Source of the DNA: Candidatus Bathyarchaeota archaeon
GTDB taxonomy: Archaea; Thermoproteota; Bathyarchaeia; Bathyarchaeales; Bathycorpusculaceae
Assembly: GCA_963772455.1 (NCBI GenBank)
Contig: CAVYXJ010000013.1
Location: 83,163 to 147,162, forward strand
Reading direction: 5' to 3'
Length of the DNA: 64,000 bases
Shown: piece after piece, positions 1-18,972 of the stretch
Layout of the letters: each line of letters opens with the position of its first letter
Position numbering within the stretch: position 1 is the stretch's first letter
Notes under the pieces: generated by a model
Told to the model about the DNA's origin: nothing
The model's input: only the letters and a program-made list of their open reading frames with translations
Database searches by the model: none
Translations under genes and position numbers: made by a program

Positions 1-2
1 TC

Positions 3-196
3 GGAAGCCGCATGCTCCACAAAAGGCTCAGACAGCTCGTTTTCCGGATGCGCGTACGTAAACGGAATTTTCCGCAAAGCAGGGCTTAATCTTTGCCCTT
101 GATTCCCCTAACGCGCGGGGCTCCTGCTTGGAGGTTTTATGTCATCGCTGTCGGGCTCTGCGGAAAAGCATGTGGCTTTCAAACGAAGTTGCGTTT
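3..196 (+). ncRNA. Unassigned structured RNA/ssDNA element with pseudoknot potential
   Basis: 14-bp helix 3-16/167-180 (2 G-U), helix 26-36/147-156 crossing helix 68-76/159-167, hairpins 42-46/63-67, 81-85/95-99, 105-108/117-120, 121-124/130-133, 181-185/192-196; followed by T-rich tract. Confidence 0.45.
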
Positions 197-245
197 CATC
201 AATCCCCTTTTTCATTTTTTATTATTATTAACGGAGGTGAATTAC

Positions 246-902
246 ATGAATAACAAAGTAGGAAAACTCATAAAGACAATATCAATCGATAACAAGCCAG
301 AACTTGTTCAGCATATTGAGAAACAATCGAATTTCAGCAACTACGTTCAAACACTCTTAGAGCAAGACCTTGCAAGACTTCACGCAACACAGCAACAAAA
401 ACAGACTGAAGCGAAAATAGAGCTAACAAAAGATGAATACCTCACATTCGAGCATTGTAAAAAATATTTCAGAGAATATGGCGGTATGACCTATGCAAAG
501 TACTTCCATTACTTCCCTGTGCAAATAAGCTCCGACCATCTGAATTGTTTATTGTTAGATGTTTATGATATTTGTAAAACGTATGCTCCAACAACCGCCG
601 AATACATTAAGCATATTAGAGAAAACGATGAAGACTTTGATATCTTCTACGATAAAATAAGTCGTTATTGGCAACAAGAAAATCCAATACCTGAAGACTG
701 GAAGAAAGAAATCATACCTGGAATGACATTGCATGAAGCACTTTCAAAGATTATACCTGAAGCTATCAAGCTAAAAGACAAAGATATTCCATTAACAATC
801 AAACGAATCAGCGAGATAGTGGGGTTAACCTATCAGCAAACATACACACAACTAATGCCACATATCAGACCTATTCTAAAAGAGCTACAGGTTGAAGTTT
901 AA
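246..902 (+). CDS. Hypothetical DNA-binding protein, N-terminal ribbon-helix-helix-like and C-terminal HTH-like segments
   Basis: GGAGGTGA RBS at 234-241 favours ATG 246; KTISID..PELVQHIEK..FSNYVQTLLEQDL RHH pattern; LTIKRISEIVGLTYQQTY HTH pattern. Confidence 0.6.
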   Translation: MNNKVGKLIKTISIDNKPELVQHIEKQSNFSNYVQTLLEQDLARLHATQQQKQTEAKIELTKDEYLTFEHCKKYFREYGGMTYAKYFHYFPVQISSDHLNCLLLDVYDICKTYAPTTAEYIKHIRENDEDFDIFYDKISRYWQQENPIPEDWKKEIIPGMTLHEALSKIIPEAIKLKDKDIPLTIKRISEIVGLTYQQTYTQLMPHIRPILKELQVEV

Positions 903-1720
903 TAATAATAAAAAAAAATAAACCCTTTCTTTTTTGTTAAACTAATCGAGGCAATCTTAACCTGATGTTTCCTTAACGTTAACATGAATAGTGAAGTCAG
1001 CGTTACCGCAGTAAACAGCGTTATAATTGCTAACAATGAAAACTCTGGAACAGTGGGAGTTGGCGTTGGATTGGGAGTGGGAGAAGCAGATGAAGTTTCA
1101 CCGATGGTTATTGTTTGTGTATCGCTCCAATCGCTTGTTTCACCGATAAAAGTCCATCCGCTTGGACTTGATTCAGAGTTATAGCTAATGTAGCCTATGA
1201 ATGCTTTAACTTGAAAATCAATTTGGGAGTCAGGTGGTAACGTTGGACCGAACCCATTCCATCCAGCCGATGAATAGTCTCCTTTATACGAAAAAACCGA
1301 ATACTCTGTTTTTAATTGGGCATCTTCTACCGTCAACATAGCATATTCATCATAGGGGTAATACTTCTGATGCCAGTCTTTTTCAAAATGTCCCTTCCAA
1401 TGAATCTCATAGTGAAGATAAACAGTCCTGTCCCCAATCTGTTCCTTGATTGTAAAAGGGGTGAATGGCTGATTCTTTACCGAAAGTTGAATGGTTCTTG
1501 ATTCAACATGCCGTCCAGCCTCGTTTATAACCTGTCCGTTGAAAGGGTTTACCGTTGAAGAAGGTGGAATATCATAAGAGGAGTCGATAAGGGTAACATT
1601 AAACTCAGGCACAGAGGGTTTAGGTATTGACTGAGCATATGCAGATTCAATCATTATCAGACTTGAAACTGCTAAGACAATAACAAGAAGTAACGAGAAC
1701 CCTTTGCCGATACTGCCCAT
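899..1720 (-). CDS. Secreted PEF-CTERM-type membrane-anchored surface protein (family A paralogue 1)
   Basis: Signal peptide ..AYAQSIPKPSVPEF; Pro/Thr linker PTPTVPEF + TM helix + basic tail RKH. Confidence 0.8.
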   Translation of the reverse strand: MGSIGKGFSLLLVIVLAVSSLIMIESAYAQSIPKPSVPEFNVTLIDSSYDIPPSSTVNPFNGQVINEAGRHVESRTIQLSVKNQPFTPFTIKEQIGDRTVYLHYEIHWKGHFEKDWHQKYYPYDEYAMLTVEDAQLKTEYSVFSYKGDYSSAGWNGFGPTLPPDSQIDFQVKAFIGYISYNSESSPSGWTFIGETSDWSDTQTITIGETSSASPTPNPTPTPTVPEFSLLAIITLFTAVTLTSLFMLTLRKHQVKIASISLTKKKGFIFFYYY

Positions 1721-1744
1721 ATCAAGTACTAAGAGAATAGAAGC

Positions 1745-1753
1745 GATAAAAGG
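1745..1753 (-). promoter_or_regulatory. TATA box of leaderless promoter
   Basis: CCTTTTATC on minus strand, 26 nt from ATG 1720, same spacing as other array genes. Confidence 0.55.
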
Positions 1754-2225
1754 TTTATTCCAAAAAACTATACTATTTCAATTCTCCTAATTTGATTCGC
1801 TTTGAGAGTTGTTGTACTTTTCGAGGTTGCTTCGTTGTTGGTATCGTAAATGTTGAGAAAGCTAAAAGCTGCAAATTCCATTAGAAATAGGTTTAAGATG
1901 GAAAAACTCCATTCTTTTGCTAATGTTCACCGCGTGGGTATCGTGGCAGATGAATGCTGTTTCATTGAACATGTTTGCAATTATCGAAGCTAAAATTTGA
2001 AGTAAACATTGAAACAAGGTAAAATATGCCTTAATTTTCAATTTTACAGAGAATTTTTACTCGATTTTCAACGAAAAAACATATTAAAAAGTCTGAAAAT
2101 TTAGGCAATTATACTTTTTTATACATAGATGAAAATGCAATTCGATAACATACTTTACTTATCGCAAACCTTCTTTGAAAACGACCGATCAACCACCCTC
2201 TGATCGCAACACAAAAAAAACTTAC

Positions 2226-2249
2226 TTTGTTAAAGTTAAGTTTATCAAG
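2226..2249. repeat. Imperfect palindrome, 9-bp arms with 6-bp spacer
   Basis: TTTGTTAAA-GTTAAG-TTTATCAAG (7/9 arm match); identical left arm at 933-941. Confidence 0.35.
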
Positions 2250-2281
2250 CTTTTCATTATAAATTTAGTTTATGCTTTTTC

Positions 2282-3226
2282 CTAAACGTTTGGTTTGTTT
2301 TGAGAGATGGTTTTTCGATGAGTTCTGTAAAACAGAAGATAGATAATAACTATAACTAATACGACAAATACGAATGGAACTATTAAGACAAAATTGTTGT
2401 CAGATACTTGAGAAGGCGTTGGCGTAGGGGTTTGCATCGGAGTTGGTAAAGGTTTTACTGAGGGCAAAGGCAAAAACGGTTCTGTCTTAATCAAATAAAT
2501 CCTTCCTGTTCGTGGATTATCGAATAAATTATATCCAACACCCAAAACAGCGAGTGCACCATTAGATGTTTCAATTATCGAAGAAATCTCAAGAGGAGCA
2601 GTGCCATCACCACCAGTGTAGGTCAGGTTTATTATCCATTGAGTGTTGTTATTTGAATCAGTTTTAATAAGGCTGCCTTGTTCTCCATAAACAAACCCGC
2701 TATCACTTGTTTGAACGAGAGTTGGAGCACTGCCTAAGTCTGGTACACTTGAATAATTTTGAATCCATTGGATGTTTCCTTGAGAATCTGTTTTAATTAA
2801 AGTAGGAGTGAATTCACGTGCCCCTCCGCCAATTAAAGCGGAAAACCAGCTTCCTGATAATTCATATCCTTCATCGCTTGTTTGGATAAATGTTGTTGCT
2901 CTAAAGTAACTGATGGTTTTATTCCATTGTAAATTGCCTGATGAATCAACTTTGTATAGGGTTGATGGTCTAATAGTGTACTGGTATGACCAACCCAAAT
3001 TCACGAAAACGTACCCTCCATCACTTGTTTGAATTAGGTTTGAAGTTGATTCAACATTAGTGTCGCCATAAGGACCAGAATCACCGTAATCTTTTTGCCA
3101 TTGTATAGTGGGAGCAGAAGTAAATGTGGTTGATTGGGCTTTCACGGTTGCAGGTTCAAGTGTAATTAAAGAAGTTAGGAACAACGCAACAAGAACCAAT
3201 GCAAAACTCTTGCTTTTCTTACCCAT
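2282..3226 (-). CDS. Secreted, C-terminally anchored protein with beta-propeller-like repeats
   Basis: Signal peptide; repeated IQTSDGGY / LxKxDSxGNxQW motifs; Pro/Thr linker, TM, basic tail. Confidence 0.75.
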   Translation of the reverse strand: MGKKSKSFALVLVALFLTSLITLEPATVKAQSTTFTSAPTIQWQKDYGDSGPYGDTNVESTSNLIQTSDGGYVFVNLGWSYQYTIRPSTLYKVDSSGNLQWNKTISYFRATTFIQTSDEGYELSGSWFSALIGGGAREFTPTLIKTDSQGNIQWIQNYSSVPDLGSAPTLVQTSDSGFVYGEQGSLIKTDSNNNTQWIINLTYTGGDGTAPLEISSIIETSNGALAVLGVGYNLFDNPRTGRIYLIKTEPFLPLPSVKPLPTPMQTPTPTPSQVSDNNFVLIVPFVFVVLVIVIIYLLFYRTHRKTISQNKPNV

Positions 3227-3248
3227 AGTAAGCTGATAGAACCATTTC

Positions 3249-3284
3249 AGATAAAAGACTTCTCGTTCAAGACTCTTGACTAAG
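3249..3284 (-). promoter_or_regulatory. Array promoter plus half junction motif
   Basis: CTTAGTCAAGAGTCTTGAACGAGAAGTCTTTTATCT (minus strand); 35/36 identical to 4992-5027; TATA 25 nt from ATG 3226. Confidence 0.7.
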
Positions 3285-3348
3285 CACTATTTGCGTTTTC
3301 TGTATGTATTATTTAGGCGAAGATGTCAGAGCATTCAGTAGATAAGTA

Positions 3349-4062
3349 TTAGGAATAGAAAATAACTTTGAGATATTTTTGCTCACTTTTTTTGTTCTTC
3401 AATTGCGATATAAGTGTAACAGTAATTATTGCTGCAGCAATTAGAAAAGCAACACCTATGTATAGATACAAATTATCCTTCTCCATTTGGGCAGTATAAG
3501 TTACCAAATACTCTTTAAAGTCAAAAACTTGTACGAATCCTCCATGTAGAAAAATTGCAGTATAGTAATTGCCTGATTCTGTAGCCCTAAAAGCTACTGC
3601 TCCATTCTTCCTTGCTACATTTGATGCCTCAAAATTAGTTCCATTTTTACTTGCCCATGCCGAGAAGTCAAAACTGTTATTGTTTAACTGAATAACAACT
3701 GATTTAAAGTTGGTAAATTGTTGCTCAGAAAAAATGAAGCCAGTTACGTAAATATCTGTGTCCCACTTAGCTTCTATGCCTTGTCCTGCGTGGAGAGATA
3801 TTGGTGGTAGATTGAGAAAATCAGTATTAGGTGGCTGAAATGGAGGATAATAATAGTTCCCATTTAGGTATGTGTTATTTACTGATGCTACTGGATTTGG
3901 GTAGTTTATGTTTGGAGTATCAGTTTGATAAGAACTCCTTATTGGAGCAGTATGTGGAGAAGCAAAGTTGAGAGAGATAAAAAATGCGCCCGTTAGAAGC
4001 AATATTAAGATAACTATTTTTACTATATTTCTAAGTCTGAATCTCTCTACCTTTGGCTTCAT
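3349..4062 (-). CDS. Membrane protein with two terminal TM helices and a glycosylated extracellular domain
   Basis: N- and C-terminal hydrophobic helices, several NxS/T sequons; start set at ATG 4062 by promoter spacing. Confidence 0.7.
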   Translation of the reverse strand: MKPKVERFRLRNIVKIVILILLLTGAFFISLNFASPHTAPIRSSYQTDTPNINYPNPVASVNNTYLNGNYYYPPFQPPNTDFLNLPPISLHAGQGIEAKWDTDIYVTGFIFSEQQFTNFKSVVIQLNNNSFDFSAWASKNGTNFEASNVARKNGAVAFRATESGNYYTAIFLHGGFVQVFDFKEYLVTYTAQMEKDNLYLYIGVAFLIAAAIITVTLISQLKNKKSEQKYLKVIFYS

Positions 4063-4088
4063 ATCCATATTCTGTAAGATGTTAGTCC

Positions 4089-4146
4089 ATAAAAGCCTTG
4101 CAGTAAACAATTCTTGACTGAGATTCGTAAAATTTCCTTTACTAAG
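4089..4146 (-). repeat. Full junction motif (4112-4146) plus TATA (4089-4095)
   Basis: Minus strand CTT-AGTAAAG-GAAA-TTTTACG-AATCTC-AGTCAAG-A, ungapped alignment to 5017-5051 and 7071-7105. Confidence 0.7.
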
Positions 4147-4968
4147 TTAAGTTTGTGTTTTTTGTGGTAGACCAACAAACCAGCAGATGACACCATAATA
4201 GTTCAGTAGCAGAGGAATTGTCCATAAGGGAAACTCTGGAACTGTCGGGGTGGGTGTCGATGATGTTATGGTTGGAGTTGGTGTTAAATTTGGTGAGGGT
4301 GAGGTTGAAGTGGAAGTTGGAAGAGGTTCAGGATAAATCAATGTTGGATATGGGGAATTATCAATACTGCTTGCAAAAACGTTTGCAGTATCACTTTGGT
4401 TAATTGTCACAGTAAGCGTATTGCTCCATCCACTATCTTGACCATTAATCACGGGATAGGGAAAAAGTGGTTGTATAACCCAGCTTTGGTAGCCAATCAT
4501 AGATATTACTTGAACATCAATCACTGAACCTTTAGAAAAATCTTGGTGGATAGTGAAATAGGTAAAAACAGAACTATAGTTTCTATTTAGGAAGCCCTCG
4601 TCTTCTCCGCCATAAAGATATTGCCAATATTCACCAAAGTGTCCCTTATAGCGGACATTGTAGAAGAAGTTAAGGTCACGTCTTGTACCATTGGGGTTTG
4701 TTAGTACAAACTGGTTGAAGGGTTGATTTTTGATTTTCCCTTCAATTTTTATATCGGTAATATGTCTGCTGGGAATAGTCGTTTGTTGCCCAGTATAGGG
4801 GTCTGTTTGGATTGTTGCAGTAGTATCATATGAATTATCAACCACTTGGATAGAAAACTGCGGAACAGATGGTTTAGGAATAGTTTGAGCATTGACGGAT
4901 TCTGTCAAAAATACAGAGAAGGCTAAGATAACTACAATTAGTACTGAGAAACCCTTGATACATTCCAT
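4147..4968 (-). CDS. PEF-CTERM-type surface protein (family A paralogue 2); +1 frameshift in TM anchor at ~4202
   Basis: MECIKGF..AQTIPKPSVPQF; PTPTVPEF; removing one A restores LLLTIMVSSAGLLVYHKKHKLNLVK matching its neighbour. Confidence 0.75.
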   Translation of the reverse strand: MECIKGFSVLIVVILAFSVFLTESVNAQTIPKPSVPQFSIQVVDNSYDTTATIQTDPYTGQQTTIPSRHITDIKIEGKIKNQPFNQFVLTNPNGTRRDLNFFYNVRYKGHFGEYWQYLYGGEDEGFLNRNYSSVFTYFTIHQDFSKGSVIDVQVISMIGYQSWVIQPLFPYPVINGQDSGWSNTLTVTINQSDTANVFASSIDNSPYPTLIYPEPLPTSTSTSPSPNLTPTPTITSSTPTPTVPEFPLWTIPLLLNYYGVICWFVGLPQKTQT

Positions 4969-5785
4969 GTTTAAGGTTAGGGTTGGTTTGTAGATAAAAG
5001 ACTTCTCGTACAAGACTCTTGACTAAGAGCAGTAAAACTTTCTTGACTAAGTTGTGTTTGTGTTTTTTGTGGTAGACCAACAAACCAGCTAACACCAGCG
5101 TTATTGTTAGTAGTAGCGGAATTGTCAATGAGGAAAACTCTGGAACGGTAGGAGTTGGCGTTGAATTAGGTGAGGGTGAAGTTGAAGTGGAAGTCTCAGG
5201 TATGGTTATTGTTTGTGTTTTACTCCAACCACTTGCTTCACCTGTAAAAACCCAAGGAGCCAAAGGTAGTTGCTGGTCTCTGAAGGAATTGCCTATCAAC
5301 GCTTCAACTTGAAAATCTGCTTGACTGCCTGAAGGAATACTCAAAATTCTTAGACTCGAATGCAAAGACTCTGCTCCCGACAAAGCGAATGAAATGATGG
5401 TACTTTGATTTCCTGAATCTTGACTTGGATATGCATCAGGACTAAAAAGCTCCTGCCAATCGGTTGAAGAATGTTCCTTCCAGCGAACATTATAGAAAAA
5501 TCCAATTCCAAAGGTATCATCAACATAAGGTTGATTCTTAATAATTATCTTTACGGCACTATATTCCATATGATATCCATTATCATTAGCTTCAAACAGT
5601 CCAGTGCTGGGATTAAGAGAGTAAGTTGGTGGTTTGTCAAAAGATGGACCTATTAACTCTAAGGTGAATTGCGGAACAGATGGTTTTGGTATTGTTTGAG
5701 CATTTACAGATTCAACCATCAGTAGACTTAGACTTGAGATAGCCATTGTTAAAATCAGAACTATTGCTAAATTCTTGCTATTCAT
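4874..5785 (-). CDS. PEF-CTERM-type surface protein (family A paralogue 3); reads through junction motif into the next gene
   Basis: AQTIPKPSVPQF..GEASGWSKTQTITIPE..PTPTVPEF, TM, HKKHKHNLVKKV; no stop until 4874. Confidence 0.75.
   Translation of the reverse strand: MNSKNLAIVLILTMAISSLSLLMVESVNAQTIPKPSVPQFTLELIGPSFDKPPTYSLNPSTGLFEANDNGYHMEYSAVKIIIKNQPYVDDTFGIGFFYNVRWKEHSSTDWQELFSPDAYPSQDSGNQSTIISFALSGAESLHSSLRILSIPSGSQADFQVEALIGNSFRDQQLPLAPWVFTGEASGWSKTQTITIPETSTSTSPSPNSTPTPTVPEFSSLTIPLLLTITLVLAGLLVYHKKHKHNLVKKVLLLLVKSLVREVFYLQTNPNLKHGMYQGFLSTNCSYLSLLCIFDRIRQCSNYS
4992..5051 (-). repeat. Full junction motif (5017-5051) plus BRE/TATA promoter
   Basis: Minus strand CTT-AGTCAAG-AAAG-TTTTACT-GCTCTT-AGTCAAG-A then GTCTTGTACGAGAAGTCTTTTATCT; TATA 26 nt from ATG 4968. 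Confidence 0.75.
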
Positions 5786-7022
5786 TGGTGGTCCTTCTAT
5801 GCTTGAGGTAAACTGCAGCTAAGAGTACAGGCACAAAGAATGTTAAAATTGCCAATACTGGAAACTCTGGAACGGTAGGTGTAGCTGTTGGTGACAAGGT
5901 AGGTGTTGGTTTAGGGGTTGTTGTAGGGGTTGAGGTGGGAATCGTTGGTGCTTCAGGGTTTGGTGCAGTTAAAAAGGGTGTGAAATTGACTGTACCTAAA
6001 TTGAAATCATTCTTTTTATCATGGATTGTTTGGCTTATCATTGCTGAATTGGTTGTTCCCCACCAATTATTAGTAGCATCCACATTTTCATTAGCTTCTG
6101 GAGCTAAGTGTATGTTTTCAGAGTTTCCGTAGATATTGTTGTTATTAATGCGTGGAGTAGGGTAGGCGATTATGCCAACTGTATTGTTAACTATTGTATT
6201 CTTTAGAATAATGCTATGGCTTGCCACTATTCCTTGATAGTTATTGATGACTATGTTTTCTTCAACCCTGCAAGAAGGACCTGATTTGATCCCAACTTTG
6301 CACCCATAGACTGTATTATTAGATAGAACATAGATGTCATGAAAACTGTTGTAAATAATGCCTATTTCTCCACCAATAACCGTGTTGTTTGAAATCGTGG
6401 AGGCATCATCGTCTGTATAAATTCCCCAATTAATGTTATGAACTACATTGCCTGAAATCGTTGCTGAAGACTTAAAAATTGACATCGTATCCCATTCGCC
6501 AAATATTTCATTGTTCGTAATTATAGTTGAACTATATTGACAGCTTATGTATCCTGTTATTGTGTTGTCGTTTATTTTTGGGGATGTGCCATTAATTTTT
6601 ATCCAGATTGATTTTAATATGGAGTTTTCTATTATGGAGCCTAATTGTGTGTTTTTGTTCCAGCTTGGGCTTGGATTCATAAATTCGATATATGATGCTC
6701 TATTATCGCCACCGTTGAAATTTACTTTTTCAGTGTTGCTGCCTTTTGCATTTATTGTGCCATTTACTAATAGGTAATGGTTGTTAAGGTTTACAGTGGC
6801 TCCAGAATCAATTGTTAATGTTGCTCCTTGACTTATGGCTACAGGACCTGCAAGATTGTATGGGCTGTTTGCTTTGGTCCAAGTTGTATCTGAGTTTATT
6901 ATCATACTGTTGATGGTAGTACCGTTTTGAGCTAATCCAAAAGGTGTAGTTCCAACAATTATTAAACTCGATACAGCCATAATTAGAACAAGGAATACTG
7001 CAAAACTCTTACTTACACCCAT
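5778..7022 (-). CDS. Right-handed beta-helix (NosD/PbH1-like) PEF-CTERM surface protein
   Basis: Repeated TISNNTV/IxNN motifs, NVDATNNWWG signature, PTVPEF + TM + KHRR. Confidence 0.8.
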   Translation of the reverse strand: MGVSKSFAVFLVLIMAVSSLIIVGTTPFGLAQNGTTINSMIINSDTTWTKANSPYNLAGPVAISQGATLTIDSGATVNLNNHYLLVNGTINAKGSNTEKVNFNGGDNRASYIEFMNPSPSWNKNTQLGSIIENSILKSIWIKINGTSPKINDNTITGYISCQYSSTIITNNEIFGEWDTMSIFKSSATISGNVVHNINWGIYTDDDASTISNNTVIGGEIGIIYNSFHDIYVLSNNTVYGCKVGIKSGPSCRVEENIVINNYQGIVASHSIILKNTIVNNTVGIIAYPTPRINNNNIYGNSENIHLAPEANENVDATNNWWGTTNSAMISQTIHDKKNDFNLGTVNFTPFLTAPNPEAPTIPTSTPTTTPKPTPTLSPTATPTVPEFPVLAILTFFVPVLLAAVYLKHRRTTNE

Positions 7023-7105: not shown

Positions 7106-7189
7106 AAAAGGTAGACCTTCCACCTCGCCGCCATTCCTATAAAGGTGCATCCGGACAACAGACACGTGTAAAACGTGGAGGTCAACAAA

Positions 7190-7471
7190 ATGATAACACA
7201 AGTTAGTTCAACAATCGAGTTAAACCCTGAATTAGCGAATTTAGCCTATGAAATGGGTTTAAATGCGTCAAAAATCTGTGAAAACGCCCTTAAATCGGCA
7301 ATAAGGTGCCTTCAAGGCGTGAACTTGAATAAGTGTTTGGTGGACGAGCCGGGATTTGAACCCGCGACCTCCACGATGCCAACGTGGCGATCATGCCAGA
7401 CTGATCTACTCGCCCAAATTTATCTGGCTTCTGAAAGTTACCCCGCCTCATTTAATAAGCGTTTCTTATAG
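7190..7471 (+). CDS. CcdA-antitoxin-like RHH ORF reading antisense through tRNA-Ala; probable int(N) fragment of an SSV-type split integrase
   Basis: TATA ~7137, GGAGGT RBS 7177-7182; ELANLAYEMGLNASKICENALKSAI; continues in frame as LVDEPGFEPATS (antisense tRNA). Confidence 0.55.
   Translation: MITQVSSTIELNPELANLAYEMGLNASKICENALKSAIRCLQGVNLNKCLVDEPGFEPATSTMPTWRSCQTDLLAQIYLASESYPASFNKRFL
7338..7415 (-). tRNA. tRNA-Ala: tRNA-Ala(GGC), CCA encoded
   Basis: Acceptor GGGCGAG/CTCGTCC with G3:U70, anticodon arm CCACG-TTGGCAT-CGTGG, GTTCAAATC T-loop. Confidence 0.95.
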
Positions 7472-9918: not shown

Positions 9919-10770
9919 ATGAATAGAAAGAAACTTTCGATCGCAATTCCGGCATCTACAATATCTGACACTCCGCATCCAAGGGAGAAAACAGCTAAAA
10001 TCGGGTTGATTGGGCGGGCAGCGGCGATTTTTCGAGTGGATGAAATAATAGTTTACCCCGACAACAACGAGGTGGACCAGCGTAGGCACCTAGATTATAT
10101 TGCTCTTATACTCAACTACTTGGAAACCCCTCAGTACCTTCGAAAGGCGCTCTTCAAACTTGATCCGGATTTGGAGTTTGCGGGAATTCTGCCTCCATTA
10201 CGTACTCCGCATCATCCTTTGAGCGGTAAAACTAAGCATTTGCAAGTTGGCGAGTATCGTGAAGGCTTGATTTTGTCTGAGGTTAAAGAGGGGTTAGTTG
10301 TGGATATTGGTGTTCAGCAACCAGCTCTTTTGAGACAAAAACAGTTTGCCGTTGGCAACCGCTTAACCCTGCAAATTGTTAATGTTGGCAAACAGATTGA
10401 AGTTCAAGCTGCAAACCGCGAGGATGTTCCACAATATTGGGGTTATAACGTTCGCGTTGAGAAGCGTTCTTTTGGTCAATTAATGTTTGATAGGGATTTT
10501 GATTTGAAAATTGCTACGGCAAAGATAGGTGACAATTTCATTGATGTTGCCAACAAAATAAATGCGAAATGGCGGAGCAGCCAAAATGTCTTAGTAGCGT
10601 TTGGTGCGCCAACCCGAGGATTACATGAAATCGCCGAAGATGAAGGCTTAAAACTGGGAAGCATCGCAGATTTTGTGGTTAACATGGTGCCTAATCAAGG
10701 AACTTTGACCGTTCGCACAGAAGAGGCGCTTTTTGCTTCCTTAGCCATTCTAAACATACATTTCAACTGA
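9919..10770 (+). CDS. SPOUT-family RNA methyltransferase (DUF171/C9orf114-like)
   Basis: IARAAAIFRVDEI-like motif, YLETPQYLRK, PPLRTPHH, NQGTLTVRTEEA. Confidence 0.85.
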   Translation: MNRKKLSIAIPASTISDTPHPREKTAKIGLIGRAAAIFRVDEIIVYPDNNEVDQRRHLDYIALILNYLETPQYLRKALFKLDPDLEFAGILPPLRTPHHPLSGKTKHLQVGEYREGLILSEVKEGLVVDIGVQQPALLRQKQFAVGNRLTLQIVNVGKQIEVQAANREDVPQYWGYNVRVEKRSFGQLMFDRDFDLKIATAKIGDNFIDVANKINAKWRSSQNVLVAFGAPTRGLHEIAEDEGLKLGSIADFVVNMVPNQGTLTVRTEEALFASLAILNIHFN

Positions 10771-10842
10771 CGTTTTTTACTCTAAGTTTTTTAGATGTTT
10801 TGGCTAAAGGCATAAAAGCCTCTTTTGTTTATTGTGGAGTCT

Positions 10843-11962
10843 ATGCCCTCTCTTGACCTTGCCATGCCAACTGCGCTTTTGATTGTAGTGATCGTTGCCA
10901 TGTTCTTAAATAAGCGAGCTGAAGGTAAATTGGCGGCGACAGTCGAGCAGAAAGAATTCAAGACCCGAGACATCATTCTTCTAGTTATCTTCATAGCAAT
11001 TGCAATTTCAGTGATCGCTGTCACTTCAATGCTAAACCTAGGAGAAATCTTCCCAAACATCCTCATGATAGTTTTCCTATCCTCCTACACTATGCTCCTA
11101 TTTACCTTTGCACTCGTTTTCTCCAACCTGACCAGAATTCGGGTGCAATTACTCTCAACAGGATTCGGAATCATAAGCTTGATTGCAGGGGTAGCTAGCC
11201 TTCTTGGTCAGCTGGCTGATGCCTATACAATCTATAGAGCAATTGCGTTTTTTGTGCTCACAGCATTATGCTTCGGAGTAGTAGTTTATGAACAAAAAAA
11301 TGTTATCTCAAAGACACGGTGGTATTTGGCTGCTCAACCACCAGCAATATTTGTCTTACTTGTTCGCATTCTTCAATGTTGCATATGGAGGGACTGTCAG
11401 CGTTTGGTTCCCAATCCTAATGGATGTATTCGGATTCACATTCGCTATTTTAATCATAATGTATCTTTCATCCATGTTTAACTGGAAAACAGTGGGAATT
11501 TTTGCAGTGCTACTAACTATACTAGATGTCATACTGGTCTTTAGTGGACCAATGGTGACAGCGGCACGCACATTCACTGGACTGGGTCTTCCAGTTCTGG
11601 TTTACCTGCCAAACTTCCCAGTTATACTAAACCAAGCAGGCGAAATTGGACTCCGCGGGCTAGGCCTTGGCGACTTCTTCTTTGCGGGGATTCTCGCCGT
11701 CCAAACATTCAAGCAGTTCGGCAAAAGAACCGGAATCATAACGGCTGTTGCAATGGCTTTAGCTTTTGGAATTTGGGAAGCCTTTTTACCTGAAATAACA
11801 AAGTATTTCAATATAGGAGGTTTCCCTGCGACTGTGTGCATCATTACCGGTTGGTTACCAATCGTCGCATGGAAACTGCTAACTACAAGAAACCAACCTA
11901 AATCCATTCCACTTGTTGAACAAACCGGGCAACCAGTCGAGCCGCCACCAAATTCCCAATAA
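10843..11962 (+). CDS. Presenilin/signal-peptide-peptidase family GxGD intramembrane aspartyl protease; +1 frameshift at ~11360
   Basis: Multi-TM; TILDVILV and GLGLGDFF catalytic motifs, FPAT (PAL-like); CTTG->CTG restores one ORF. Confidence 0.7.
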
Positions 11963-12056
11963 ATTTATCACATCACAATTAAAAAAAACGCTAATTTTAA
12001 TATAAAGTAAAATATTTTTGGGAAAAAATAAAATATAAAATAAAGTAAGGCTTATT

Positions 12057-12374
12057 TTACCCGAATAGGGCGCCTAATCCTTCTAGTGCTGCATCTTCCT
12101 TGGCTTTCTCTTCTTCAGCTTTCTTCTTCTTGTCTTCTGGTGCGGCTGCTGCTGGTTTTGCTTCTCCTGCTGGAGCGATTGGAGCTGCTGCCATCATAGC
12201 TGGTGCGGCTTTGATTGCTTCTTCAATGTTTACTTCACTGAGTGATGCAACGAGTGCCTTTACTTGTATAGGGTCAACGGTGACGCCTGCTGCTGTGAGA
12301 ACTTTTGTTACTGATTCTTCGTTAATTTCTTTTCCTGCCTTGTGAAGGAGCATTGCTGCGTAAATATTTTCCAT
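12057..12374 (-). CDS. rpl12: Ribosomal stalk protein P1/L12p
   Basis: [24 protein letters not shown], Ala-rich hinge, GLGALFG end. Confidence 0.95.
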
Positions 12375-12649
12375 ACTTTTTCACCTCTCAATTGCACTAT
12401 TTTTAACTTTTTTATTGGTCTGATCCGCTTCGAATTTGAAGCTGATCGTTACCTGAAATGGCAGTTTTATCCGCCGTTTTCTTGCCGTTTAACAGAATAC
12501 CCGATGCCTTATGAACCTTTCGTACATGCATTATACAAGTCTAAAGTCATATTTTTCGTTATAGATTCAAAATAAAATATTGTGAGTCACCAATAACATT
12601 ATCTTGAAGAACAAACCACAAATGCGCATAGCTTGCAGGTCATGAGACA

Positions 12650-13621
12650 ATGGGAAACATTACAGTAGCCATCCTAGGACCAGTAGATTACGGCAGTAAC
12701 CTTGCCAAAAAAGGAACATCAACAGATATAACTCTCTATAACCTAAAAAAAGGCGAAGACACCGTAACCTTCATCGAACCCACAAGATACCCTGAACGAT
12801 TGGCGCCATTGTTCTATGCTTGTGCCTTGGCAAAAAAAGCCATAGTTGTCGTAGATGAGATAAACGCCACTTTTGGCGAGCAACTTGTAATGCTTCAATG
12901 CAGCGACATAAAAACTGGTTATATAATCCTGAGGAACTATGTTCCGAAAGAAAAAATTGAAGCGCTCATAAAAGGAACAAACTTGGAAAAATTTGAAATC
13001 ATAGCGGATGACCCAAACGTTCTACGTGAAAAACTGTTGGTGGAAGCTTCCCAACACAAACCAGTTGAACTTCAAGCTGGACAGCAAGCAATCGGATCGG
13101 TGCCGGTAGATCATGCTTTCAACGTTAAAGGCGTTGGAGTAGTAATTCTCGGAATCGTGGTTTACGGTGTAGTTCAGAAGCATGCAACACTCAATGTTCT
13201 TCCAGCCATCAAAACCGCCCAGGTCCGTTCCATCCAAAAACACGACGAAGAATTCGACCTTGCATGGGAAGGCGACCGCGTTGGATTAGCTTTAAAAAAT
13301 GTTGAAGTGGAAAACTTGGATCGCGGAACCGTCTTAACAAATGACCCTGCAATCAAAACTTCAACTACATTAAACACGCAGGCAACGCTTGTCAAATATT
13401 GGCAAACACCCATCAAGCCAGGCATGGTTATGCATGTTGGTCACTGGACGCAGTTCATAACCGCAAAAGTAGACACTGTATCTGACGCAGGCGACTGGAA
13501 AAAACCGACCCTAACCTTAACGCTTGATAAACCACTCGTCCACCGCCCAAACGATAAAGCTGTACTGATGTATTTGGAAGGAGCTAAACTTCGTATAGCT
13601 GGAACCATAGATCTGCTATAG
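12650..13621 (+). CDS. SelB-II / EF-Tu domain II-III protein with degenerate G domain
   Basis: KKGTSTDIT, VDHAFNVKGVGVVILG, VRSIQKHD, GDRVGLALK; no GxxxxGKT. Confidence 0.8.
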   Translation: MGNITVAILGPVDYGSNLAKKGTSTDITLYNLKKGEDTVTFIEPTRYPERLAPLFYACALAKKAIVVVDEINATFGEQLVMLQCSDIKTGYIILRNYVPKEKIEALIKGTNLEKFEIIADDPNVLREKLLVEASQHKPVELQAGQQAIGSVPVDHAFNVKGVGVVILGIVVYGVVQKHATLNVLPAIKTAQVRSIQKHDEEFDLAWEGDRVGLALKNVEVENLDRGTVLTNDPAIKTSTTLNTQATLVKYWQTPIKPGMVMHVGHWTQFITAKVDTVSDAGDWKKPTLTLTLDKPLVHRPNDKAVLMYLEGAKLRIAGTIDLL

Positions 13622-13715
13622 GTCCTATTCAAGTCTCCAAAGCAGCAAGACAAAAAGTCGTTTGGATAAACCTATTTATCTACTTTTTTAGTATTTTTCT
13701 AAGAGGTATCTTATT

Positions 13716-14234
13716 TTGGCGCTACGTGTTTTCGAAATTGTCGATAAGTTAAGAATACGAGTTACGCGTTTGTTGAGGCGAAGAAGACGAGAAATCAACA
13801 TAGACGTCTTTGCAAATCCTGAGAAATACCTGATTTGCTTGCCGATTGAAAAACTCGTAGCCGACACAAAAGTCGACCCGGAAGCTATAGAGATGTATAA
13901 GAAGAAGATTCAAAACGGAGAGAAAATTGCGCCTTTAATCGTAATTAAACATCCAAAATTTGAGGAATACGCAGTTCTGGACGGTCACCATCGATACTAT
14001 GCTCTTTTAGAAACAGGCACGAAAATGGTCAATTGCGCCCTCGCAGGAGATTTCTCAAGCGTAATTTTTTATATGACTGAACACGGTTATTTTCAACCAA
14101 AACCAGAAACCAAAGAAGAAAATCAAAAGAAGATTATACACTTGCATGAAAATGTCCAAGATTTTCTTCAAAATTTCCTAAAAGACCCAAATAAACTAAA
14201 AACGCCAAAGAGAGAAAACAAACCTGACACTTAA
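13716..14234 (+). CDS. ParB/sulfiredoxin N-terminal-fold protein
   Basis: PLIVIKH..YAVLDGHHRYYAL. Confidence 0.7.
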   Translation: MALRVFEIVDKLRIRVTRLLRRRRREINIDVFANPEKYLICLPIEKLVADTKVDPEAIEMYKKKIQNGEKIAPLIVIKHPKFEEYAVLDGHHRYYALLETGTKMVNCALAGDFSSVIFYMTEHGYFQPKPETKEENQKKIIHLHENVQDFLQNFLKDPNKLKTPKRENKPDT

Positions 14235-14464
14235 TTAACGAATTTACCTATGAATTAATATTTTTTGTTAGCACCTTTAGCGGAAAAGAAGACGTGCCTT
14301 TTTCGCCGATTGCAAAAGTATGGATGAATTCATGGAAATTCTCAGAAAAACAGTGGAAGAAACGAAAACGGCGAAAAAGAAAAACTGGAATCGCTACAGA
14401 GACTTCAGCGGTTTGTTCCAGTAGACACAAATTCTTAAAGCAAGCTGTCACAAATAGGTTTACT

Positions 14465-15067
14465 ATGTCTGAGATACGAAATTTTGTTTACCAGAGGATA
14501 GGGGCAGCCTCCGGAATAATATCGCCTATAGTTGCATTCGTCTGCATCCTGACCGCGATTGCATCCTACCCTACATTCAGTTGGACAAACAACGCCTTAA
14601 GCGATTTAGGTGTAGTTTCAGGCATAACTTCTTCTCTTTTCAACTTTGGGCTCCTTGCCAGTGGAATTTTAGCCTTCAACTTTTCAATATTCGGCTTATT
14701 CACTTACTCAGGGAGAAGTGGTGTTGGAAAAATAGGTTCAGCAGTCTTTGCAGCTGCAACCCTAGCACTAATTGGCATCAGTGTCTTTAACGAGAATTTT
14801 TCTCCAGTACACTATATTGTTTCCGTAGCGTTCTTCACATTGGCGCCGATTGCTCTTTTCATCTTAACTTTTGGTTTTTGGCTCAATCACCAACGCGAAA
14901 CAGCGGTTTTCACTGTCGCGGTTGGGGTTGCGGCAGCATTGCCATGGCTTCTGTTATTCGCATTTAATTATGTACCTAACGTAGCAATTCCCGAGTTCTT
15001 ATCTGCTCTTGCTATTTCAGTCTGGGCAATGTTGCTCGGCAAAAAGATGTTAAGCCCTAAAGTTTGA
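14465..15067 (+). CDS. DUF998-like membrane protein
   Basis: FSWTNNALSDLG, FNFGLL, HYIVSVAFF; six TM segments. Confidence 0.75.
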   Translation: MSEIRNFVYQRIGAASGIISPIVAFVCILTAIASYPTFSWTNNALSDLGVVSGITSSLFNFGLLASGILAFNFSIFGLFTYSGRSGVGKIGSAVFAAATLALIGISVFNENFSPVHYIVSVAFFTLAPIALFILTFGFWLNHQRETAVFTVAVGVAAALPWLLLFAFNYVPNVAIPEFLSALAISVWAMLLGKKMLSPKV

Positions 15068-16058: not shown

Positions 16059-16176
16059 ACGTAAGAATTCTTTGTCTAGCTTAATAGGTTATTCAAATTT
16101 CAAAGTGATACATAACTACTCGAAAAAGTTCTGAATCAGTTAAAAAAAAGAAAAGTTCAAGGCCGCTTTGGAACGC

Positions 16177-18972
16177 TTAAGTGTGATCGTGTTTGCTTAG
16201 GTCTTCAGCTTTTTTGCCGAATCGTCTTGAGATAAACTTACGAATTTCTTCTGCAAAGACAACTATCAATGCCAGTGAGATTAGGTATATCCAATCTGTG
16301 AAGCCAAGCGCGGTTGTTCCAAAGACATGTTGCATTACCGGTACGTATATCAGGACTGCTAGAATTGAGATTTGTGACACTATGCCTGCGATTATCCATT
16401 TGTTGGTTTTGAGGCTGGTTCTAAAAATGGATTGTTTGCTGGTTCGACAGGCTAAGACGTTTCCTGCTTGCGCCACTACTATACCCGCGAACATCATAGT
16501 GACACCTTTGAGGTAGAGTGGGTTTGGTGTTATTCCTTTTACTCCAAATTGCCAGTCGCTGGGTACAGGCATTCCAATTTGCCATCCGCCTGCGGCCCAA
16601 GCGTTTAGGCATCCAATCATTGCGCCTACAGCAATGATTACTCCGATGAACACTGAGCGGATAAGGACTCTGCGCGTAAACAACCTTTCTTTGATGCTTC
16701 GTGGCGGTTCCTGCATGATTCCTGCTTCTGGGGGTTCACGGCTCAACGCTAAGCTGGGAATAACTTCTATTGCTAAATCGATGGCTAACACTTGGACGAC
16801 GAGTAGCGGCAGAGGAATACCCAATGCTGCATAGAGAACGAACGGAATGAGTTCTGCCCAGTTATGGCTGAACACGTAGACAATGAATTTGCGTATATTC
16901 TCGTAAATTGCCCTGCCGGACTCAACTGCTTTAACGATTGATGCAAAACTGTCATTGAGTAGCACAATGTCTGCGGCTTCCCTTGCAACATCCGTGCCGG
17001 AAGCACCCATGGCTACACCGATGTTGGCTTCCTTAAGTGAAGGCGCATCGTTTGCTCCATCCCCAGTAACTGCAACTATTTCGCCACTTCCCTTGAGAAC
17101 TTTAACTATCCGAAGCTTCTGTTCAGGGGCAACCCGAGCGAAAATCACATTACCTTTCTTGACTTCGTCAACTATGGCTTTGTCACTTAAGTCATCAAGG
17201 TCAACGCCCCGTATAACTTGCGCAAAGTCCTTTTCAACTATGCCGACTTCTTGAGCTATGGCTTGTGCGGTTGGACCATAATCACCTGTGATGATGACAG
17301 TTTTTATTCCGGCTTGTTTAGCTTTTTGAACAGCGTTTTTCACTTCTTTTCTCGGTGGGTCGCGCATTCCTGCTAAACCGACAAAAATAAGGTCTTTTTC
17401 GGTTTCTTCATCCTTCTTATAATCGCCTTTTGGAATTTGTTTGTACGCAACCGCTATAACACGTAGACCTTCATTGGCAAATTCATGGATTCTTGTCTCT
17501 ATCCAATCCATATTTTCTTGAGTTAAATCTTCTACTTTACCATCCACAAAAATTTTGTTGCATAAATCCAAAATGTTTCTTGGGGCACCTTTGGTATAAA
17601 TCAAAACATTGCCATTTAATGAGTGGACCGTGCTCATTCGTTTTCGCTCAAAACTGAATGGCAAAATGTCAATAGTAGGTTTCTCAGCGATTAGTTCTTC
17701 AATGCTTTGACCATATTTCAAAGCTGCAACCAGAAGTGCTCCATCGGTTGGGTCACCAATGACGCTCCAATTTTTGTTGCGGTCAGTGGGCGGATCAATT
17801 TTAGCGCCATTGCAAAGGGCAGCAATTTCAAGAAGTTTATCTAGAGATTTTGTTTCTCCTTCTTTGAGAGGTTGGCCGTTTATTGAGAAGTCGCCTGCTG
17901 GCATATAGCCCAAGCCTGAAACTTCGATAATTCTGTCTTTTACCCAGAGTTTGTTAACGGTCATTTCGCCCTTGGTGATTGTGCCTGTTTTGTCTGTGCA
18001 AATTACGGTGACGCTGCCCAACGTTTGCACTGCTGACAAGCGTTTGACAAGAACGTGTTGTTTAACCATCTTCAGTACGTTGATGGCTAATGCGCTTGAA
18101 ACTGTAACCTGCAAACCTTCAGGCACACAGCAAACCATGACACCGATCATGAAAAGAATACTATTTGCAGGAGGAACATTCAAGAAAATAAGACTAACAA
18201 TAAAGAAGGCTGTCCCAACAACTACAGCGATAATAAAGTCATACTTGGCGGTCAAGGCAATTTCTTTTTGCAGAGGGCTATCTTCTTCTTTAATCGTCTG
18301 AGTTAAACTGGCGATTTTCCCAAACTGCGTTTCCATGCCTGTAGCGTAAACAACAGCTTTTCCCTGACCCTTAGCCACGCTTGTGCTCATAAAAACAAGG
18401 TCAGGTGCATACAAGTATGCCTTCTCAACTATTTTTACTGGTTCAGCAACCCGCGGTTGTGGCTCAGATTCCCCAGTTAAAGGTACGTTATTTGTCCATA
18501 AATCAAAAACTTCTAGCAAACGTGCATCTGCGGGTACACGGTCGCCTTCTTCCAATTGAACGATATCTCCAGGAACAATCTCTCTTACAGAGATTTTCTT
18601 AAGTTCGCCATCTCGGAAAACTTTGGCGTATTCGGGCATCCAGCTCTTGAGGGTTTCCATGGCTTTTTCTGCACGCGCTTCCTGGAAGATGCTAACAAAA
18701 ATGTTGACGAAAACAACTGCAAGAATGATTAAAGCTAGTTCTGGGCTTCCACTAAAATATGATAAGCCAGCTGCAACAATTAGTAAGATTCCGAACAAAT
18801 CCTTAAGGTTGCGGATAAACTTGTAAATGAATGGAACTTGCCTTTTTTCGGATAACTTGTTGTAACCGTATTTTTTGAGCCGTAGCTTAGCTTCTTGACT
18901 GGTTAATCCGTTTTCTGATGTGTTTAAGTCGTTAAAAACCTCGTTAATCGGCAAAGAAGCAGCTTTTTCCAA
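16177..18972 (-). CDS. Type II cation-transporting P-type ATPase
   Basis: TGES, CVPEGL, ICTDKTGT, KGAP, DPPR, TGDGANDAPSL. Confidence 0.95.
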   Translation of the reverse strand: MEKAASLPINEVFNDLNTSENGLTSQEAKLRLKKYGYNKLSEKRQVPFIYKFIRNLKDLFGILLIVAAGLSYFSGSPELALIILAVVFVNIFVSIFQEARAEKAMETLKSWMPEYAKVFRDGELKKISVREIVPGDIVQLEEGDRVPADARLLEVFDLWTNNVPLTGESEPQPRVAEPVKIVEKAYLYAPDLVFMSTSVAKGQGKAVVYATGMETQFGKIASLTQTIKEEDSPLQKEIALTAKYDFIIAVVVGTAFFIVSLIFLNVPPANSILFMIGVMVCCVPEGLQVTVSSALAINVLKMVKQHVLVKRLSAVQTLGSVTVICTDKTGTITKGEMTVNKLWVKDRIIEVSGLGYMPAGDFSINGQPLKEGETKSLDKLLEIAALCNGAKIDPPTDRNKNWSVIGDPTDGALLVAALKYGQSIEELIAEKPTIDILPFSFERKRMSTVHSLNGNVLIYTKGAPRNILDLCNKIFVDGKVEDLTQENMDWIETRIHEFANEGLRVIAVAYKQIPKGDYKKDEETEKDLIFVGLAGMRDPPRKEVKNAVQKAKQAGIKTVIITGDYGPTAQAIAQEVGIVEKDFAQVIRGVDLDDLSDKAIVDEVKKGNVIFARVAPEQKLRIVKVLKGSGEIVAVTGDGANDAPSLKEANIGVAMGASGTDVAREAADIVLLNDSFASIVKAVESGRAIYENIRKFIVYVFSHNWAELIPFVLYAALGIPLPLLVVQVLAIDLAIEVIPSLALSREPPEAGIMQEPPRSIKERLFTRRVLIRSVFIGVIIAVGAMIGCLNAWAAGGWQIGMPVPSDWQFGVKGITPNPLYLKGVTMMFAGIVVAQAGNVLACRTSKQSIFRTSLKTNKWIIAGIVSQISILAVLIYVPVMQHVFGTTALGFTDWIYLISLALIVVFAEEIRKFISRRFGKKAEDLSKHDHT

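Follow-up and report, generated by a model that had tools for sequence, protein, structure and literature searches.

The + strand of the window carries a structured RNA domain of about 178 nt that had not been catalogued before. The window is the stretch of 64,000 nucleotides from a Candidatus Bathyarchaeota archaeon that was analyzed here. The fold consists of a closing helix (P1), a junction (J1/2), a second helix (P2) enclosing the hairpins P3 to P6, and an 8-bp long-range pseudoknot, and it is shown by covariation among homologues. The domain was shown to be an intercistronic part of the core operon of tyrosine-integrase elements in Bathyarchaeia; it does not constitute a gene of its own driven by a dedicated promoter. 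The domain represents a new RNA family that is listed in no RNA catalogue and is of a known general kind, namely the structured RNA motifs of mobile elements. The known distribution is narrow, with copies in two genera and on roughly a dozen contigs to date.

Structure of the RNA domain

The positions of all features are listed in Table 1, and all listed pairings were verified in the letters of the window. The models R1 and R2 match the window's own copy (L029:17000-17184) with 229 and 190 bits, respectively, and these matches span from one base before the window to position 184. A preliminary description of this DNA, made without homologues, had reported a 14-bp closing helix (3-16/167-180). 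Of this helix, 13 bp (3-15/168-180) were retained, and the remaining pair 16/167 competes with the pseudoknot. The other elements of the described fold, a second helix (26-36/147-156), a helix crossing it (68-76/159-167) and four hairpins, were recovered with slightly adjusted boundaries, and all of them are conserved.

Compensatory changes were found in 11 of the 13 base pairs of P1, and 98.4% of its cells are paired in the model-fitted alignment (91.6% in the structure-blind alignment). P2 shows compensatory changes in 8 of its 11 pairs and has 97.2% paired cells, and its wobble pair G25-U157 is invariant in all 10 sequences. The weakest helix under structure-blind alignment is P3. The pseudoknot, which was left out of the covariance model used for the searches, is paired in 98.6% of the cells of the model-fitted alignment and in 92% of those of the MAFFT alignment, and one of its pairs occurs as U-A, C-G and G-C across the sequences. 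As the 3′ strand of the pseudoknot is located between the 3′ strands of P2 and P1, these three helices can stack continuously.

The A-rich junction J1/2 is among the best-conserved single-stranded parts and is also found in the reduced variants described below. Further conserved positions are the loop of P6 (NGCU(C)U) and the sequences GGCU (119-122) and GCUUG (126-130). By eye, an alternative pairing was identified in the alignment between a CGG in the 3′ strand of the pseudoknot and a CCG in J1/2. It is conserved and is replaced by CGC:GCG in the copy of G333 (L230). This competing CCG:CGG pairing hints at two conformers.

Table 1. Features of the RNA domain, its surroundings and the genes that follow it in homologous loci. 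Positions without a contig name are window coordinates.
Feature	Position	Strand	Remarks
Whole structured RNA domain	3-180	+	First to last base of closing helix P1
P1, 5′ strand	3-15	+	Pairs with 168-180, 13 bp
J1/2, A-rich junction	16-24	+	UCCACAAAA; family consensus CCGAAAAA, then GG opening P2
P2, 5′ strand	25-36 (25-29 and 31-36, A30 bulged)	+	Pairs with 147-157
Hairpin P3	43-66 (43-46 with 63-66)	+	90% of cells paired; U-A to A-U flip in 4 of 10 sequences
Pseudoknot, 5′ strand UUUUCCGC	68-75	+	In the multiloop between P3 and P4; pairs with 160-167
Hairpin P4	81-99 (81-85 with 95-99)	+	4 of 5 pairs compensatory; loop length variable among homologues
Hairpin P5	105-120 (105-108 with 117-120)	+	C-G to U-A at two pairs; 97.5% of cells paired
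Hairpin P6	121-133 (121-124 with 130-133)	+	Directly abuts P5; 100% of cells paired; 2 pairs compensatory
P2, 3′ strand	147-157	+	Partner of 25-29 and 31-36
Pseudoknot, 3′ strand GCGGAAAA	160-167	+	Between the 3′ strands of P2 and P1
P1, 3′ strand	168-180	+	Partner of 3-15
Operator-like palindrome AAACGAAGTTGCGTTT	181-196		Family motif ACGNAGTTGCG, inverted repeat; outside the RNA
T-rich tract, then GGAGGTGA	203-240	+	Conserved before all ORF218 homologues
218-aa gene, N-terminal RHH-like region	246-902	+	phrog_14312, E = 1.3e-5
81-aa ORF, then 218-aa RHH gene	L032, L037; partial copies L034, L033
546-aa P-loop NTPase, C-terminal winged helix	L221
RHH proteins of another type, 213-261 aa	G260, L215, L222
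ORFs of 102-105 aa	L223, G333
Start cassette	L032:7681-7700, L221:~2150, L037, L034, L232:~2104		Absent from the window

Covariation, strand and coding capacity

The check by homologues and covariation that had been proposed in the preliminary description gave compensatory changes in 29 of the 49 base pairs of the model-fitted alignment (10 sequences), in which 95.8% of the cells are paired. This result was equalled by none of 500 shuffles. When the 3′ partners were slid by 1-3 columns, 39-54% of the cells were paired and 2-8 compensatory pairs were counted. Since the model-fitted alignment is fitted to the structure, the count was repeated with 11 sequences that had been aligned by MAFFT in a structure-blind manner, which resulted in 82.9% paired cells and 22 compensatory pairs (0 of 500 shuffles; slid controls 36-52%). 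Its conservation in the homologues, accompanied by compensatory changes, places the fold far outside what chance would produce.

Minimum-energy folding of the + strand likewise predicts P1, P2 and the hairpins (z = -3.3). Against dinucleotide shuffles, the own copy reached a z-score of -3.8, and its - strand folds less well. The sense fold was stabler than the antisense fold in all 12 copies compared, with z-scores between -2.1 and -6.3. An asymmetry was also found in the wobbles, with 46 G-U cells compared to 6 A-C cells, which points to the + strand and bears out what the preliminary description had read from the wobble pairs of the own copy. The GC content of the own copy is 53%, compared to 37.5% in the coding sequence preceding it (400 nt). 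Window positions 1 to 200 have 52-54% GC and the surroundings mostly 27-45%; each of the 10 copies measured is enriched in GC. For 42 of 45 pairs, nucleotide identity was higher in the RNA than in the final 400 nt of the neighboring coding sequence.

The copies are 178 to 200 nt in length, with length steps that are not multiples of three and stop codons in nearly all frames, so that the region is non-coding. In the own copy, the upstream ORF of 148 aa ends with a TAA 4 nt before window position 1, and P1 begins 6 nt after this stop codon. An extension of the structure beyond the 5′ end of the window, which had been considered, was therefore dropped. The element is thus a folded + strand nucleic acid and not a coding end. 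Folded single-stranded DNA of the same strand is formally an alternative, and RNA is the economical reading because the element sits in a string of co-oriented genes.

If the region had no function, being a GC-rich fold arisen by chance or the coding 3′ end of the gene before it, this would fit the decaying state of the own island. Against this, the upstream ORF ends before the element, the indels do not come in threes, stop codons occur in nearly all frames, and the compensatory pairs counted above are distributed across 10 sequences. This explanation is scarcely credible, and the coding end, which had been named as a possible refutation of the RNA, is contradicted by the same stop codons.

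Comparison with known RNA families

For the identification of known RNA families, 3 kb were compared with the covariance models of Rfam 15, which include RNase P, SRP RNA, riboswitches, ribozymes, HEARO/omega-RNA and int-alpA. There were zero matches at E ≤ 1, and at E ≤ 10 the matches were at chance level only (9-17 bits compared to cut-offs of 36-80 bits). No tRNA- or tmRNA-like gene was found by ARAGORN in L001 or in L029, and no K-turn, BHB intron or C/D-box features were found by eye. This agrees with the preliminary description, in which no known family had been recognized. Its proposal of a novel ncRNA of an integrated element was substantiated by the negative Rfam comparison, by the strong covariation and by the location inside a repeat-bounded island with a broken integrase.

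Homologues and distribution

A total of 11 full-length homologues and 2 probable reduced variants (about 105-111 nt) was identified in two genera of Bathyarchaeia and in metagenome contigs. A homologue of the 218-aa protein (ORF218) with 63% identity was found in G303, and the intergenic DNA before this gene folds alike, with many compensatory changes and a z-score of -5.8. Nine ORF218 homologues from a large protein collection led to further loci. The first covariance model was based on two sequences only (the own copy and L032), and the full-length homologues score between 33 and 220 bits with it. This two-sequence model matched the RNA over its full length in L031, L037 and L035 and in 5′-truncated form in L034, and it also detected the copies of G260 and L215. 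The copies in L221, L222 and L223 were reached via homologues of the upstream protein of about 295 aa, and a second model added the copy of G333 with 43 bits.

The reduced variants are located in G293 (L228:1353-1457, - strand) and G171 (L232:1973-2083, + strand) and have weak scores (E = 0.016 and 0.003, respectively). They keep P1, the CCGAAAAGG junction and P2, and contain a single inner hairpin without an evident pseudoknot partner. Both occupy the same position in the locus, behind distant ORF295 relatives, and for one of them a fold z-score of -4.5 was determined. G171 and G259, the genome with the L215 copy, belong to a second genus of the same family.

A BLAST search with 200 nt in the own genome and 60 relatives gave chance matches of 15-30 nt only, and model searches with strict filters, covering 150 genomes from the family and another 150 from the class, returned only the own copy. 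A DNA pattern scan of metagenome and genome collections yielded 4 true copies among 80 matches, and the loci examined from a pattern scan of viral contigs were all chance matches according to the model.

The conserved core operon and ORF295

The genes around the RNA follow a conserved core order: integrase, a divergent winged-helix gene, a Zn-ribbon ORF, ORF295, the RNA and the next gene. The preliminary description had tied the structure to the RHH gene behind it. The downstream gene was found to vary, and the constant neighbor is the upstream gene of about 295 aa (ORF295), which is present in all 13 loci. In every one of the 13 loci, full-length and reduced copies taken together, P1 begins 3-18 nt behind the stop codon of the ORF295-family gene. 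In the 30 nt upstream of the RNA, no conserved TATA-like box was found.

The predicted structure of ORF295 (pLDDT 86.5) is composed of long helices and one β-hairpin. A fold search against the PDB and viral models gave nothing below E = 0.02, and no family was assigned by Pfam or PHROGs. The ORF295 family is small, with 58 representative clusters (E ≤ 0.001) among 1.84 billion. One distant member, in G008 (L229), has no recognisable RNA behind it, and in L215 ORF295 is truncated and the RNA intact. Among viral contigs, no relative was found for ORF218, for the 148-aa C-terminal piece of ORF295 or for an intact ORF295 (P0011); the plasmid and phage collections held no relative of ORF295. A metagenome scan with the ORF295 alignment resulted in 600 pattern matches, of which 0 were confirmed.

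In the window's genome, the element is part of an island of about 10 kb, which is flanked by a direct repeat of 261 nt (89% identity) and lies next to tRNA-Ala. The repeat copies (L224:6145-6405 and 16123-16383, corresponding to window positions -2856 to -2596 and 7123-7383) are 9978 bp apart. The right copy overlaps an N-terminal integrase fragment and the 3′ part of tRNA-Ala(GGC) at window positions 7338-7415, the only tRNA nearby. The SSV-type tyrosine integrase is split into three ORFs (L029:14197-15332), the Zn-ribbon ORF (L029:15965-16100) looks frameshifted by eye when compared to G260, and the gene of about 295 aa (L029:16106-16996) contains one in-frame TGA, which divides it into pieces of 138 and 148 aa. 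Because of the broken integrase, the frameshifted Zn-ribbon ORF and the interrupted ORF295, the own copy is regarded as decaying. The RNA fold is intact despite this decay.

Downstream genes and translation start

The genes following the RNA belong to at least four unrelated kinds (Table 1). Of the 13 full or reduced copies, 11 have a Shine-Dalgarno sequence and a start codon within about 10-36 nt past the end of P1. The usual distance from the RNA to the conserved ribosome binding site and start codon is about 23 nt, and in 7 loci the start codon is found 19-20 nt after the end of the model. In the predicted ensembles the ribosome binding site is mostly unpaired, and it is unsequestered in either predicted conformer.

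A start cassette consisting of GGAG, 8 nt and AUG GUU AAA GCA UAC AG, which encodes MVKAYR, precedes the unrelated 81-aa and 546-aa proteins. The MVKAYR start was also found behind a reduced variant in the other genus. An origin of the 81-aa ORF by deletion within the gene of the 546-aa protein was rejected, as the common part in BLASTP comprises the first six residues only. Likewise, a function of the RNA as a readthrough or frameshift stimulator was rejected: the in-frame continuation is short and unconserved, and the indels are not in threes.

The preliminary description had listed a further hairpin at 181-196 and a T-rich tract as following the fold. The hairpin is not conserved as a structure, and in most homologues its motif is separated from the RNA by an additional ORF. 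Hairpin and tract were not counted as parts of the RNA and were assigned to the promoter/operator region of the RHH gene. The motif ACGNAGTTGCG was found about 40 nt upstream of RHH-type genes in nine cases (L032, L037, L033, L034, G303, L139, L222, L223 and L215), in most loci far from the RNA with an ORF or ORF remnant in between. From its sequence and placement, it is probably the operator of the RHH protein and promoter. The tract at 203-240 is the probable TATA region and ribosome binding site of the 218-aa gene and could double as an oligo-T terminator for the operon before it, judging by general knowledge of archaeal promoters and terminators. The intervening ORF is missing from the own copy and from L035, so that the RNA is directly followed by the RHH promoter there. 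The 218-aa gene has 9 homologues, and the one in L038 is without RNA or ORF295 in the sequenced upstream stretch.

Possible functions of the RNA

A tentative reading of the sequence data is that the RNA acts in cis on the mRNA of its own operon, as a folded leader or spacer that would set the expression of the downstream genes; this may be the case, and it is the reading preferred here. From the sequence we also infer its transcription, its ends and its processing. To terminate on ORF295, a ribosome would need to unwind the base of P1, and P1 would bring the ORF295 stop codon beside the next start site. In addition, the start region (SD-AUG-GUU-AAA-GCA-UAC-AG, MVKAYR) appears to travel with the RNA as the same cassette despite the different downstream proteins. 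It is the opening of P1 by the ribosome, the proximity of stop and start and this travelling cassette that suggest an action in cis. There is no obvious on/off mechanism, as the ribosome binding site is not visibly sequestered by the fold. Several observations speak against this reading. The seven-helix fold is more elaborate than simple translational coupling requires, and the strict linkage to ORF295 together with a changing downstream gene fits an RNA with a protein partner equally well. Moreover, the RNA is intact in the own copy and in L035 though the downstream ORF is deleted there, and the own island is decaying.

It is conceivable, albeit rather unlikely, that the element is a stable RNA acting in trans with ORF295. 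It would be cut from the operon transcript, with P1 shielding both ends, and would form an RNP with this lysine-rich helical protein for the maintenance, replication or mobility of the element. This is in line with its location next to an ORF295-family gene in 13 of 13 loci where the downstream gene changes, and with the intact fold where ORF295 is truncated (L215) or interrupted (own copy). Many protein-bound RNAs have folds closed by pairing of their 5′ and 3′ ends, and the complex fold found here is closed in the same way. As the confident all-helical model of ORF295 has no known fold relative, a new RNA-binding role is open to the protein. However, ORF295 has no known RNA-binding domain, a promoter or processing signal was not recognized, the distant relative in G008 (L229) is followed by no recognisable RNA, and such a role leaves unexplained why the following start codon lies at a short, conserved distance. 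Further still goes the idea that the RNA and ORF295 form a new RNP that is the functional heart of an undescribed kind of archaeal integrative element, for example by priming or licensing replication or by controlling excision, and that the RNA class has no bacterial or eukaryotic relative; we consider this speculative and improbable. A replication origin or priming structure, present as folded single-stranded DNA, as a primer or as an R-loop RNA, is quite improbable and would be proposed by analogy to the Sulfolobus plasmid pRN1, whose replication depends on a stem-loop of about 100 nt located 3′ of orf904 (Berkner et al., 2014; PMC4234260). Both structures are GC-rich and conserved, belong to an archaeal mobile element, lie immediately 3′ of a gene of the core operon and keep their structure more than their sequence. 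The element is found directly 3′ of ORF295 in all loci, and in L221 it is also directly 5′ of the 546-aa P-loop NTPase, which is weakly similar to helicase and clamp loaders; G-T wobbles are tolerated in folded single-stranded DNA too. The two structures have no sequence similarity, and unlike the single hairpin behind the primase-helicase of pRN1, the seven-helix fold with its multi-helix junction and pseudoknot is not a long hairpin and is followed by a ribosome binding site. In addition, ORF295 is without a replication-protein signature, a Rep/HUH, primase or helicase gene is absent from the conserved core, no iterons or AT-rich unwinding region were seen beside the element, and the element is located inside a transcription unit with tight spacing to stop and start codons.

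The architecture also resembles an aptamer, with a multi-helix junction closed by P1, a long-range pseudoknot and a clustering of conserved nucleotides in the junctions. Together with the ribosome binding site and start codon at a fixed distance and the conserved CCG:CGG alternative (CGC:GCG in L230), this would suit a riboswitch in which the pseudoknotted junction binds a small molecule and tunes the following gene. Such a function is very unlikely considering that the downstream genes are functionally unrelated and neither metabolic nor transport genes, so that no coherent function is apparent, that the element follows an ORF and not a promoter, that the ribosome binding site is accessible in both predicted conformers and that the reduced variants have no pseudoknot partner. 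A self-cleaving ribozyme separating the ORF295 message from the downstream message would be favored only by the intercistronic position and the compact pseudoknotted fold. No Rfam ribozyme family was matched even at E = 10 and no conserved bulged catalytic core was recognized, which makes this explanation extremely improbable.

Comparison with known systems

To our knowledge, very few archaeal structured RNA classes are known beyond housekeeping and guide RNAs, and almost none in archaeal mobile elements. The nearest precedents resemble the RNA in position or logic only, and each of them fails at least one of the defining features tested. In plasmids of the IncI-alpha and IncB type (repY-repZ), a leader ORF stops at a structured RNA that is remodelled by the passage of the ribosome, and a pseudoknot governs the translation of rep. 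This pseudoknot pairs directly with the ribosome binding region of rep and is opposed by an antisense RNA. Similarly, the upstream ORF stops at the base of the structure in the elements described here. In contrast to the plasmids, the 3′ strand of the pseudoknot is more than 25 nt away from the ribosome binding site, with the 3′ strand of P1 and about 10 nt in between, the fold is much larger, the host is archaeal and an antisense RNA is not known.

The omega-RNA of TnpB/IscB, the bridge RNA of IS110 and the pRNA of phi29 are RNAs of about 150-200 nt with several helices, often pseudoknotted, which are located beside one constant protein gene. The RNA is similar to them in size, in its multi-helix pseudoknotted fold and in its constant protein-gene neighbor. 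It differs in that the neighboring protein has no RuvC, DEDD or portal-associated features and that no guide-like variable segment was seen. Nearby, no gene of the TnpB, IscB or IS110 type was found; Pfam and PHROGs give tyrosine integrase, wHTH, Zn-ribbon and RHH proteins only.

Orphan structured RNA motifs of mobile elements have been identified by comparative genomics (Weinberg et al., 2010, 2017; PMC2864571, PMC5737381). Like these, the RNA is a covariation-supported orphan fold that travels with integrase-bearing elements. The motifs described there are bacterial, whereas the present RNA is archaeal and intercistronic and has no match in Rfam 15.

The RNA is a marker for the core that is conserved within a so far undescribed family of integrase elements of the Bathyarchaeia, which are an uncultured but abundant lineage. 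If the RNA controls the following module, as preferred here, or is a partner of ORF295, it would open a first way of studying how these elements control their own maintenance. Owing to its compact size (about 180 nt, and about 105 nt in the reduced form), it is suited for structure probing or cryo-EM.

Cargo and surroundings of the islands

In the related element L222:1-12888, defence-type cargo was found around the core, comprising a TIR-domain protein, a 1045-aa AAA_22 protein, a 1080-aa restriction-modification enzyme of the MmeI type and a DUF6602 protein. In the surroundings of the element in the window, many direct repeats of 40-160 nt were detected at L224:2800-5200 and 10000-14900 (about window positions 1000-5900 and the region upstream of the island). 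These repeats, with a spacing of about 9.6 kb, are common to the PEF-CTERM surface-protein genes on either side of the left boundary of the island, and they suggest duplicated or recombining cassette arrays.
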